Part shown: positions 52,870 through 55,415 of the stretch, one piece after another | Layout of the letters: every line of letters begins with the position of its first letter | Numbering within the stretch: the first letter of the stretch is position 1 | Notes under the pieces: generated by a model | Database searches by the model: none | What the model was told of the DNA's origin: nothing | What the model saw: only the letters and a program-made list of their open reading frames with translations | Assembly: GCA_035762565.1 (NCBI GenBank) | Contig: DASTOJ010000206.1 | Coordinates: 3,913-67,912 of the forward strand | Direction of reading: 5' to 3' | Length of the DNA: 64,000 bases | DNA from: Candidatus Methylomirabilota bacterium | GTDB taxonomy: Bacteria > Methylomirabilota > Methylomirabilia > Rokubacteriales > CSP1-6 | Translations under genes and position numbers: made by a program

Positions 52870-55083
52870 ATGATCACTCGGCGCACGACGCGGCAGCTCA
52901 CGCTCGGCACCCTCGCGATCGGCGGGGACGCGCCGATCACCGTGCAGTCGATGACCAAGACCGACACCCGGGACGTCCAGGCCACCTTGCTCGAGATCTG
53001 GTCGCTGGAGGCGGCCGGCTGCGACGTCGTCCGCTGCGCGGTGCCGGTCCGGGAGGCCGCCGAGAAGCTGGGCGAGATCAAACGACAGATCCGCATCCCG
53101 CTCGTGGCCGACGTCCACTTCAACTACAAGCTGGCCCTGATCGCCCTCGAGCAGGGCGTGGACGGGCTGCGCCTCAATCCCGGCAACATCGGGGGCAAGC
53201 GGTTCGTGCTGGAGGTCGTGGCCCTGGCCAAGGAGCGCAAGATCCCGATCCGCATCGGGGTGAATGCGGGATCACTGGAGAAAGACCTTCTGGAGAAATA
53301 CGGCGGACCAACGGCTCAAGGCATGGTGGAGTCGGCGCTGCGCCACATCCACATCCTCGAAGAATGCGCGTATCCAGAGATGAAGGTGTCCCTCAAGGCC
53401 TCCGATCCGCTCATGATGATCGAGGCCTACCGGATGCTGGCCGATCGGGTCGACTACCCGTTCCACCTCGGCGTCACCGAGGCCGGCACGCCGGGCGTGG
53501 GCACGATCAAGTCAGCGGTCGGCCTCGGCGCCCTGCTGAGCGAGGGCATCGGTGACACGATCCGCGTCTCGCTGTCGGCCGATCCCACCGAGGAGGTGCG
53601 GGTCGGCATCGACATTCTCAAGTCGCTCGGCCTGCGCAAGGGCGGCCTCACGTTCGTGTCGTGCCCGTCCTGCGGCCGCGCCGACGTGGACCTCGTCAAG
53701 CTCGCCAAGGAAGTGGAGGACGAGTTCCGCGGCCTCAACGAGGAGATCCACATCGCCGTGATGGGATGCGTGCCGGAAGGCCAGCCGGTCGTGACACGCC
53801 AGGGTCCCAAGCGCATCGAGACCGTCGGTGCGGGCGACGAGGTGCTGACCCACGCCGGCGAGTTCCACCGGGTCGAATGGGCGAGCACCCACGCGTTCGC
53901 CGGGGACCTAGTCGAGATCCAGCCGACCGGGTTCGCGCCGGTGCGTCTCACCGAGAACCACCCGGTCTGGGCGTTCCCGCTGCCCGTCTCGCTGAAAGCC
54001 GGGCGCGAACGGAGGCCGCACCTCGCACGCGCGCTCGAAGCCGGCACCGAGCCGCGCTGGATCCCGGCCGGCGAGCTGCGCTCGGGCTGGGTGCTCGCGT
54101 ATCCGGTGCTCCAGGAAAAGGAGGACCGGGCGACAATCCACGCCGTCGGGTTCGGCGAGATCCCCGTCGACGACGACTTCCTCACACTGGCCGGCTACTA
54201 CCTCGCCGAGGGCACGATGTCGGGCAAGGGGGGCCGGCGATACCAGCAGTTCTTCCACTTCCACGAGGATCAGAGGCGGTACGTCGACCGGCTGCGGGGC
54301 GCACTGACCTCGCTCGGGCTCCGATCGACGGTCCGGGGCCGCCGCCATACGGCCGAGGTCATCACGCATTCGCTGGCGTTCGGTGAGCTCCTCGAAGCAC
54401 TCTTCGGACACGGCGCCGGGTGCAAGCGGATGCCCGAGTGGATGGAGCGACTGCCGCACGACAAGCAACGGGCGCTCGTGAAGGCCCTGTGGGAGGGTGA
54501 CGGGTACCTGGGGCGGGTCCGTGGCTACTGGCGCGCCACGTACTCGACGTCCTCTCACGCGCTCGCGCTGCAGGTGCACCGGCTGCTCCTGCGCCTGGGC
54601 GTCGCGGCCTTCCTGCACCACCGCGACCAGCGGGACCGGCGGCGGAACTGGGTGGTGTCGGTGACCTCGCAGCCGGCGCTCGCCCGGCTGGCCGGGATCC
54701 TCGAGCTCGGGGCGCTGCGAGGCTGTCGGACCACCGGCCAGGCGGGCCAGGTCGTGCTCGACGAGCATGCGCTCTACGTCGGCATCAGGGCCGTCCGGCG
54801 CGTGCCGTACACCGGCCACGTCCACAACCTCGAGGTCGCCGGCGTCCACTCGTTCGCCCTGCCGGGCGCGATGCTGCACAACTGCGAGGTGAACGGGCCG
54901 GGCGAGGCACGTGCCGCCGACATCGGGGTGGCGGGCGGGCGGGGGATCGGTCTCATCTTCAAGGGCGGCGAGGTCATCCGGAAGGTGCCGGAGAAGGAGA
55001 TCGTGACGGCGATGCGCGAGGAAGTGGACAAGTTCCTCGCCGAGCGGCGGGCCGCGAAGCAAGCGGCGGAAGCGGACGCCTGA
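52870..55083 (+). CDS. ispG: 4-hydroxy-3-methylbut-2-enyl diphosphate synthase (IspG/GcpE) precursor containing an intein
   Basis: Residues 1-299 (ITVQSMT, RLNPGNIG, RIGVNAGSL, GVTEAGT, SCPSCGR, IAVMG) and 672-737 (CEVNGPGEARAADIGVAGG) together make a normal 365-aa IspG. A 372-aa insert separates them. Confidence 0.9.
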   Translation: MITRRTTRQLTLGTLAIGGDAPITVQSMTKTDTRDVQATLLEIWSLEAAGCDVVRCAVPVREAAEKLGEIKRQIRIPLVADVHFNYKLALIALEQGVDGLRLNPGNIGGKRFVLEVVALAKERKIPIRIGVNAGSLEKDLLEKYGGPTAQGMVESALRHIHILEECAYPEMKVSLKASDPLMMIEAYRMLADRVDYPFHLGVTEAGTPGVGTIKSAVGLGALLSEGIGDTIRVSLSADPTEEVRVGIDILKSLGLRKGGLTFVSCPSCGRADVDLVKLAKEVEDEFRGLNEEIHIAVMGCVPEGQPVVTRQGPKRIETVGAGDEVLTHAGEFHRVEWASTHAFAGDLVEIQPTGFAPVRLTENHPVWAFPLPVSLKAGRERRPHLARALEAGTEPRWIPAGELRSGWVLAYPVLQEKEDRATIHAVGFGEIPVDDDFLTLAGYYLAEGTMSGKGGRRYQQFFHFHEDQRRYVDRLRGALTSLGLRSTVRGRRHTAEVITHSLAFGELLEALFGHGAGCKRMPEWMERLPHDKQRALVKALWEGDGYLGRVRGYWRATYSTSSHALALQVHRLLLRLGVAAFLHHRDQRDRRRNWVVSVTSQPALARLAGILELGALRGCRTTGQAGQVVLDEHALYVGIRAVRRVPYTGHVHNLEVAGVHSFALPGAMLHNCEVNGPGEARAADIGVAGGRGIGLIFKGGEVIRKVPEKEIVTAMREEVDKFLAERRAAKQAAEADA
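53767..54882 (+). mobile_element. Intein with LAGLIDADG homing-endonuclease domain, inserted at the third Fe-S ligand Cys of IspG
   Basis: Begins with Cys (CVPEGQP). Block B TxxH is present (LTENHPVW), along with two LAGLIDADG motifs (LAGYYLAEGT; LVKALWEGDGYL). It ends ...VHNLEVAGVHSFALPGAMLHN and is followed by a +1 Cys (TGC at 54883-54885). 1116 nt, in frame. Confidence 0.85.
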
Positions 55084-55415
55084 TGGGCCAGTACGACACG
55101 CACGTCTTCGTCTGCACCGGCGGCGACGACTGTCCCAAGGGCGGCGACGTCGAGCAGTTCGTGAGGTACCTGCGCGGCGAGGTGGTCCGGGCCGGGCGCC
55201 AGCAGGAGGTCCGGATCAACAAGGCCGGCTGCTTCTCGCAGTGCGGTCACGGACCGATGATCGTCGTCTATCCGGAGAACGTCTGGTACGCCGGCGTGCA
55301 GCAGGCCGACCTCCCGGAGATCGTGCAGTCCCACATCCTCGGCGGCCAGCCGGTCGCACGCCTGCTCTACGCGCCCGGCGTCAAGGGCGCCAACAAGAAG
55401 AAAGACGCCCACTAA
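55083..55415 (+). CDS. Thioredoxin-like [2Fe-2S] ferredoxin domain protein
   Basis: ATGA overlap with the ispG stop. Cys pattern VFVCTGGDDCP...AGCFSQCGHGPMIVVYP is typical of Trx-like (2Fe-2S) ferredoxins. Confidence 0.75.
   Translation: MGQYDTHVFVCTGGDDCPKGGDVEQFVRYLRGEVVRAGRQQEVRINKAGCFSQCGHGPMIVVYPENVWYAGVQQADLPEIVQSHILGGQPVARLLYAPGVKGANKKKDAH

Follow-up and report, generated by a model that had tools for sequence, protein, structure and literature searches.

Inteins are concentrated in proteins of replication, repair and nucleotide metabolism (survey, PMC4760082). The SufB (Pps1) intein of Mycobacterium tuberculosis is a class-1 intein with Cys1, a terminal His-Asn pair, a +1 Cys and an embedded homing endonuclease (PMC8891592). 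It has been investigated as an element whose splicing responds to stress. The MoaA intein of Pyrococcus abyssi interrupts an oxygen-labile enzyme and provides a published precedent for redox-controlled splicing (PMC10663303). Here we describe an insert in the ispG gene of a Candidatus Methylomirabilota bacterium, an uncultured soil organism, located in a 64,000-nucleotide stretch of contig DASTOJ010000206.1, which is referred to below as the window. The insert is very probably a class-1 intein of canonical type that encloses a LAGLIDADG endonuclease, a selfish homing element positioned between Gly299 and Cys300 of IspG.

The IspG insert shares the class-1 features listed above with the SufB intein, and both have an iron-sulphur (Fe-S)-related host. 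The +1 Cys of the SufB intein belongs to the conserved motif EG-CTAP (hyphens in motifs mark the point of insertion), and inteins at the SufB site are found among the relatives of the IspG intein, with sequence identities of 29-33%. The two differ in that SufB is an Fe-S assembly scaffold from another phylum, whereas IspG is an Fe-S enzyme of the methylerythritol phosphate (MEP) pathway, and in that splicing of the SufB intein was shown experimentally, whereas that of the IspG intein is predicted. The MoaA intein is archaeal and is trapped by a disulfide between a cysteine of the N-extein and Cys1, whereas there is no cysteine next to the IspG junction. The solved structures of the TliVMA and PhoVMA inteins (PDB: 7qsu, 7qss, 7qst), PI-SceI (PDB: 1vde), PI-PkoII (PDB: 2cw7) and PI-PfuI (PDB: 1dq3) have a HINT domain split by a two-motif LAGLIDADG endonuclease, as does the model of the IspG intein, which they match with Foldseek E values of 4.8e-20 to 3.4e-13 and query-normalised template-modelling (TM) scores of 0.56-0.72. 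However, their sequence identity to the IspG intein is 10-16%, they reside in V-ATPase, DNA polymerase and ribonucleotide reductase (RNR), and PI-SceI has a larger DNA-recognition region. The A* domain of the long plant and Chlamydia-type IspG is also a large extra segment present in some IspG proteins, but it is never removed from the enzyme and connects the TIM barrel to the Fe-S domain, whereas the insert described here is inside the Fe-S domain and is bordered by splice junctions.

The open reading frame (ORF) of the ispG precursor encodes 737 residues (80.6 kDa; positions 52870..55083 of the window, stop codon 55081-55083; all features are on the (+) strand unless stated otherwise), and the frame is open across all 2211 nucleotides. 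The precursor matches Pfam GcpE with an E value of 4.4e-141 in two stretches on either side of the insert, and the NCBIfam IspG equivalog NF001540 and TIGR00612 with scores of 469.6 bits (cutoff 345) and 398 bits (cutoff 280), respectively. The insert is formed by residues 300-671 (372 residues, nucleotides 53767-54882). Its translation (53767-54885) starts with CVPEGQ and ends with AMLHN, which is followed by the +1 Cys. Deletion of residues 300-671 produces a 365-residue IspG with Cys265, Cys268, Cys300, Glu307, and the motif AVMGCEVNGPGE, in which the junction reads VMG-CEVNGPGE. Residues 10-311 and 309-358 of IspG from Aquifex aeolicus (PDB: 3noy) align to residues 1-302 and 672-721 of the precursor. 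The alignment is continuous apart from the insert, which thus breaks IspG exactly before the cysteine.

The N-extein (IspG residues 1-299, 52870..53766) contains the TIM barrel and extends into the Fe-S domain, ending with ...IHIAVMG. It aligns to residues 10-308 of 3noy and is 89-96% identical to intein-less IspG from Rokuibacteriota. The 66-residue C-extein CEVNGPGEARAADIG... (54883..55080) includes Glu307, encoded at 54904-54906. Over its entire length, the spliced product shares 89-96% identity with IspG proteins of 361-366 residues that have no intein. The initial annotation had claimed an insert at 53767-54882 of a 737-residue ispG product; its boundaries, the spliced 365-residue enzyme and the set of cluster ligands were all reproduced, and the alignments to 3noy and to the intein-less relatives, of the kind that it had proposed, confirm the junctions and the reconstitution of the IspG motif. 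A tblastn search of the 64-kb window found neither a second intein copy nor a second ispG. The ORFs overlapping the gene in other frames (antisense 53908-55062 and two more) have no family match and are considered artefacts of the high GC content.

The [4Fe-4S] cluster of IspG is held by one glutamate and three cysteines, is sensitive to oxygen, and has its Glu350 ligand displaced by the substrate (PMC11218510). Cys265 and Cys268 of the CPSC motif (53662..53673), with which the cysteines of the Fe-S domain begin, together with the +1 Cys and Glu307, align with Cys297, Cys300, Cys343, and Glu350 of Thermus thermophilus IspG (PDB: 2y0f, 4s38). The +1 Cys (54883..54885), the predicted second nucleophile of splicing, is Cys300 of mature IspG and aligns with Cys309 of 3noy. 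Cys265, Cys268, and Cys300 are the only cysteines of the C-terminal domain of spliced IspG. This and the alignment to Cys343 and Glu350 of T. thermophilus agree with the previous placement of the insert exactly before the third Fe-S ligand cysteine. The accompanying claim of a precursor unable to assemble its cluster is not established; chemically, the precursor has the +1 thiol and the other three ligands. A 372-residue domain at this position might prevent cluster binding, or a bound metal or cluster might instead block splicing. The dependence of the flux through the MEP pathway on splicing is a reasonable expectation if ispG is present in a single copy.

It is not unusual for the +1 nucleophile to double as a functional residue, and relatives of the IspG intein are located at the conserved EG-CTAP cysteine of SufB and at the GGG-CHP cysteine of UDP-glucose dehydrogenase. 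We take the latter to be the catalytic residue of the dehydrogenase. In the relative P0236 the residue at this site is a thiol and not a metal ligand as in IspG. The UDP-glucose dehydrogenase of Methanocaldococcus jannaschii presumably also carries an intein (UDP-GD).

The IspG intein has a predicted mass of 41.5 kDa and a pI of 9.7, and its extent (53767..54882) is supported by domain matches, AlphaFold, and Foldseek. Cys1, the putative N-terminal splice nucleophile of block A, is encoded at 53767..53769. Block B is the segment LTENHP (intein residues 61-66, 53947..53964) with Thr62 and His65. Block F, VHNLEVAGVHSF (residues 352-363, 54820..54855), contains the conserved His361, and has Asn354 in the usual position of an aspartate. 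Block G, AMLHN (residues 368-372, 54868..54882), includes His371 and the terminal Asn372. In the alignment of the IspG intein family, Thr62, His65, Asn354, His361, and Asn372 are invariant and His371 is nearly so. The N-terminal part of the splicing domain contains a basic segment of 19 residues, SLKAGRERRPHLARALEAG (53989..54045), which corresponds to a gap in the alignment with the mini-intein L021 and may contact DNA. The LAGLIDADG endonuclease domain, delimited by Pfam LAGLIDADG_3 and Foldseek matches, spans approximately intein residues 126-327 (54142..54747). Its first motif is LAGYYLAEG (residues 141-149, 54187..54213) with the acidic Glu148, and its second is LVKALWEGDGY (residues 237-247, 54475..54507) with the acidic Asp245.

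The LAGLIDADG fold has a duplicated alpha-beta-beta-alpha-beta-beta-alpha core. LAGLIDADG_3 matches the insert in two stretches with a score of 59 bits (cutoff 22.5), and partial matches were obtained to the NCBIfam models of intein-containing RecA, DnaB, GyrA, PolII, and Tes. PI-PkoII is the only meaningful match from a sequence search of the PDB with the intein; the top-scoring entry 7rdr, a designed repeat protein, is a spurious match formed by many weak repeats. The AlphaFold model of the intein, calculated from 17 sequences, has a predicted local distance difference test (pLDDT) score of 90.6 and a predicted TM (pTM) score of 0.90. The top 16 Foldseek matches of the model are all inteins, the best being the TliVMA intein 7qsu (E = 4.8e-20, TM score 0.71), and the central domain resembles the free-standing endonuclease I-DmoI (TMt 0.64-0.76, E of about 1e-6) and I-Tsp061I. 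The insert thus combines Cys1, the +1 Cys, T-x-x-H, the block F histidine, the His-Asn end, in-frame removability, and a predicted HINT fold, as characterises class-1 inteins, with a pair of LAGLIDADG motifs, each with an acidic residue at its end, and an endonuclease fold in the model. Its identification as a full-length class-1 LAGLIDADG intein is therefore borne out by the splice residues, the LAGLIDADG_3 score, the confident model, and the structural matches. We also considered the A* domain as the identity of the insert and rejected it, as had the initial annotation: the insert is within the Fe-S domain, and matches to NF001912 and NF002534, which model the long form of IspG, are confined to the shared core and reach 221-225 bits against cutoffs of 886-1045.

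A protein search with the intein identified 48 protein clusters. All of them are linked to IspG, and those with a name belong to Candidatus Rokuibacteriota or Methylomirabilales. All visible junctions in these clusters are at one common site. Among the metagenomic proteins, Cys1 is present in 27 of 28 N-junctions, and His-Asn precedes the +1 Cys in all C-junctions except one with Lys-Asn. The Lys-Asn variant, P0014, ends with ...AVAKN-C, and the remainder of its intein is intact. A scan of species-representative genomes yielded 14 full-length copies with 61-79% identity and one mini-intein of 142 residues (L021, 6001-6429), all from Rokuibacteriota or Methylomirabilota. The resulting 16 genomic copies, from the window and 15 assemblies, are 45-79% identical, and every one of them retains Cys1, T-x-x-H, the terminal His-Asn, and the +1 Cys. 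Of the 15 full-length genomic copies, counting that of the window, 14 retain the glutamate of the first LAGLIDADG motif and 14 the aspartate of the second. A catalytic acidic residue is lost in the genomic copies L010 and L014 and in P0002 (Lys), P0006 (Ala), P0012, and P0009. Additional 142-residue mini-inteins at the IspG site are present in metagenomes (P0043, P0046, P0047, P0128), and the mini-inteins have neither the endonuclease domain nor the 19-residue basic segment. P0043 has a tryptophan in place of Cys1 (possibly TGG for TGC), so that its intein is dead or the sequence contains an error.

The nearest relatives outside this family, identified by an unbiased phmmer search of 1.84 billion representative proteins, are inteins at the same site in other IspG lineages (P0181, P0184, P0187, and P0183/P0327), with identities of 39-43%. 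P0183/P0327 belong to a 408-residue Thermus-like type of IspG (including GBC93220.1 from "bacterium HR15"), in which P0327/P0331 (779 residues) carry a 371-residue intein. The inteins of other hosts for which the junctions were read are at most 34% identical to the intein from the window. Full-length inteins that are 27-30% identical to the IspG intein interrupt NifU/IscU-type scaffolds at ...VGNPV-CGD... in a Methanomethylicaceae archaeon, Omnitrophota, and Patescibacteria (L015-L020); the host was confirmed with NifU_N and TIGR03419. We take the cysteine at this junction to be the first cluster-ligand cysteine, equivalent to Cys37 of Escherichia coli IscU. Mini-inteins of 156-174 residues and full-length inteins are located at WCPG-CGDFG in the beta subunit of 2-oxoacid:ferredoxin oxidoreductase (L022, L023, and L025-L028 from Chloroflexota, P0200, P0207). 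Their +1 Cys is the second cysteine of the CPGC motif, which presumably binds a [4Fe-4S] cluster. A different intein, with a Gly-Asn end before the +1 Cys, is present in an AmmeMemoRadiSam radical-SAM enzyme from Rokuibacteriota (L024, 545-1240). It is inserted before CQNY, its N-extein is off the contig, and its +1 Cys is probably the last cysteine of a CX3CX2C motif. The metagenomic protein P0188 (1029 residues) appears to carry two inteins in one ferredoxin-type CxxCxxCxxxCP motif (...VVHN-CVFCAF-C...SN-CVDACP). The first and third cluster cysteines would serve as the +1 residues, and the second intein ends with Ser-Asn instead of His-Asn. We considered whether these inteins form a clade specialised for Fe-S ligand cysteines, but phmmer also found UDP-glucose dehydrogenase and DEAH-motif (helicase-like) hosts, and the pattern is suggestive, not exclusive.

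Alleles of ispG with and without the intein coexist in related genomes, as a survey proposed in the initial annotation has now found. Among the 120 IspG clusters closest to the spliced extein, nearly all are empty proteins of 361-366 residues, 89-96% identical to it, and are named Rokuibacteriota or with names beginning Methylomirabil. Four empty loci (L029-L032) share the gene order cdsA-dxr-rseP-ispG-ferredoxin-proS-rimP-nusA. Their uninterrupted site, ATCGCGGTGATGGG(A/C)-TG(T/C)GA(A/G)GTGAACGG, is conserved, and reads CACATCGCGGTGATGGGATGTGAAGTGAACGGTCCCGGC in L029. Occupied and empty alleles are found within single clusters of 90% identity, with extein identities of 92.6-92.9% in the Rokuibacteriota cluster. 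In the HR15-like cluster, the occupied P0327/P0331 and the empty P0329, P0333, and P0334 (408 residues) have exteins that are up to 98.5% identical, which implies a very recent gain or loss of the intein in this lineage.

Selection was estimated by the Nei-Gojobori method from 14 complete copies, including that of the window. The median ratio of nonsynonymous to synonymous divergence (dN/dS) is 0.135 for the extein of occupied alleles, 0.20 for the splicing (HINT) domain, and 0.22 for the endonuclease domain, although these values are rough at a dS of 0.4-1.2 and a GC content at third codon positions (GC3) of 0.91. The ratio of the extein indicates that the interrupted ispG is still functional, which gives indirect support to splicing, and those of the intein show purifying selection on its two domains as well. 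Intein and extein have the same GC3, 0.91, and this equality points to long residence in high-GC hosts. When the window is compared with L001-L014, the intein has diverged more at synonymous sites than the flanking extein of the same genome pair; between the window and L004, dS rises from 0.41 in the extein to 0.99 in the endonuclease domain. The intein lineages could be older than the host alleles as a result of transfer between lineages, or codon constraint could be stronger on ispG.

The anatomy, conservation, fold, and population pattern of the element are established, and splicing and DNA cleavage are predicted from its sequence. The proposed order of the splicing steps is based on the conserved residues and the class-1 pathway (PMC10663303). 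Splicing would begin with an N-to-S acyl shift by Cys1 at Gly299, and the resulting thioester would be attacked by the +1 Cys in a trans-thioesterification. Cyclisation of Asn372, assisted by His371, would free the intein, and an S-to-N shift would produce the Gly299-Cys300 peptide bond. The predicted products are a 365-residue IspG (39.1 kDa, pI 5.8) with a normal Cys265/Cys268/Cys300/Glu307 site and a free, basic intein (41.5 kDa, pI 9.7). The free intein may function as a site-specific endonuclease cutting empty ispG at ...ATCGCSGTGATGGGN-TGYGARGTGAACGG..., a candidate homing target defined from the empty alleles L029-L032, and repair would copy the intein into the cut allele. A cluster-ligand cysteine would suit a selfish element as an insertion site: the DNA is nearly invariant, the +1 nucleophile is supplied by the host, and IspG would not tolerate imprecise deletion, so no benefit to the host would be needed. 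Presence/absence polymorphism at extein identities of 92.6-98.5% is consistent with homing, and the combination of mini-inteins, lost acidic residues, and empty alleles is the picture expected of invasion, decay, and loss.

Several observations weigh against the identification of the insert as a canonical, mobile intein. Splicing and DNA cleavage are inferred for all members of the family. A hidden Markov model scan of the insert, proposed in the initial annotation, clearly matched LAGLIDADG, but the splicing domain scored just under the gathering threshold of Pfam Hint_2 (27.5 bits, threshold 28.4). The usual aspartate of block F is replaced by Asn354 (VHNLEV), invariantly in the IspG intein family, and this aspartate assists the first step of splicing (review, PMC10663303). 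The block F aspartate is common but not universal, and is not treated here as defining class-1 inteins; apart from Asn354, the element is canonical. PI-SceI is not known to have a block F aspartate either. The dN/dS values carry the roughness stated above, and the endonuclease domain may be constrained by requirements of folding and splicing instead of nuclease activity. Furthermore, extein and intein distances are correlated (Spearman 0.76), which implies that much of the spread may be due to vertical descent with loss and not to frequent homing.

The same correlation favours the possibility, which we regard as less likely than an active homing element but worth serious consideration, that the copy in the window splices but no longer moves, its endonuclease being inactive or without targets, and persists because it cannot be precisely deleted from an essential site. 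Relatives with a lost acidic residue (the six listed above) and mini-inteins exist, and intact motifs are no proof of nuclease activity. However, the intein of the window keeps both Glu148 and Asp245, the endonuclease domain evolves with a dN/dS of 0.22 across the copies, empty target alleles are abundant in the same lineage, and the presence/absence polymorphism in the HR15-like IspG lineage is very recent.

An adoption of the intein as a regulatory switch appears improbable. Its splicing would then depend on redox or on metal or Fe-S status, so that active IspG is formed only under suitable conditions, possibly through a disulfide between Cys1 and the +1 Cys, or through a metal or cluster bound jointly by Cys265, Cys268, and the +1 Cys. 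Both Cys1 and the +1 Cys are present, the latter is a cluster cysteine of an enzyme with oxygen-sensitive clusters (PMC11218510), the P. abyssi MoaA intein is held by its disulfide until conditions become reducing (PMC10663303), and several relatives are located at Fe-S-related cysteines of NifU/IscU, the oxidoreductase beta subunit, SufB, and a ferredoxin motif. Nevertheless, the intein is absent from most close relatives and polymorphic among alleles with extein identities of 92.6-98.5%, and thus the lineage does not need it. The segment ...AVMG next to the junction contains no cysteine, and therefore the MoaA-type trap between the N-extein and Cys1 is unavailable close to the junction. Conserved cysteines are very often metal ligands, and inteins with a +1 Cys may therefore land on them by chance. 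The retention of an endonuclease domain under constraint, with decay in some copies, fits a homing cycle. Dispensability, polymorphism, mini-inteins, and lost catalytic residues are more readily explained by a selfish homing cycle than by an adopted regulator, and we found no evidence for a regulatory role of the IspG intein.

We consider it quite unlikely that the recurrence of such sites is more than coincidence, with cluster insertion and splicing competing for one thiol at metal-ligand +1 cysteines in a recurrent redox or Fe-S checkpoint on oxygen-labile enzymes. Such competition would span IspG, NifU/IscU, the 2-oxoacid:ferredoxin oxidoreductase beta subunit, SufB, the ferredoxin CxxCxxCxxxCP motif, and probably a radical-SAM enzyme, and oxidation of Cys1 and Cys+1, or capture of a metal or cluster by the precursor, would tie maturation to redox and Fe-S status. 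It is hardly credible that the insert is a non-splicing domain, a pseudogene, or an assembly chimera, since, although the exact protein is missing from the protein collection discussed below and Hint_2 is below its threshold, the same in-frame arrangement occurs in 15 independent assemblies and dozens of metagenome contigs, every splice residue is conserved, the extein of occupied alleles has a dN/dS of 0.135, the frame is open over 2211 nucleotides, the fold strongly matches inteins, and the insert has no similarity to the A* domain of IspG.

The exact 737-residue protein is absent from a collection of 15 billion proteins, whereas the next two proteins of the contig, identical to HEU4370024.1 and HEU4370025.1 of a Methylomirabilota metagenome-assembled genome, are present in it. 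The public record may thus not annotate a normal gene here, possibly because of a pseudogene flag. Entries for related proteins carry the names "LAGLIDADG family homing endonuclease, partial" or "IspG, partial", and the annotation of intein-containing ispG genes looks inconsistent. The gene following ispG (55083-55415) encodes a 110-residue thioredoxin-like [2Fe-2S] ferredoxin, and its start codon overlaps the stop codon of ispG (CTGATGG). The protein scores 63.9 bits with NF041612, below the cutoff of the model, and its NCBI name is "(2Fe-2S) ferredoxin domain-containing protein". The ferredoxin gene adjoins both intein-containing and empty alleles, so the pairing is conserved, and the ferredoxin could be a dedicated electron donor for IspG.

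The literature searched contains no link between an intein and IspG or GcpE, and no relevant paper on inteins of Rokubacteria. The one paper that includes both words, describing the Methylococcus capsulatus genome, concerns the MupF and RNR inteins. The statement of the initial annotation that ispG is not a classical intein host is in agreement with this literature, but automatic annotation at the Joint Genome Institute already labels such proteins "IspG/GcpE/intein/homing endonuclease".

With this element, ispG, encoding an essential Fe-S enzyme of the MEP pathway, joins the list of intein host genes. Regulation by the intein, if true, would matter because IspG is oxygen-labile and because its substrate, methylerythritol cyclodiphosphate (MEcPP), is a stress signal. 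The 142-residue mini-intein, with its Cys1 and +1 Cys, is a possible tool for protein engineering. The presence of full-length inteins, mini-inteins, and empty alleles in one lineage makes ispG a convenient case of the homing cycle in uncultured bacteria of soil and groundwater.

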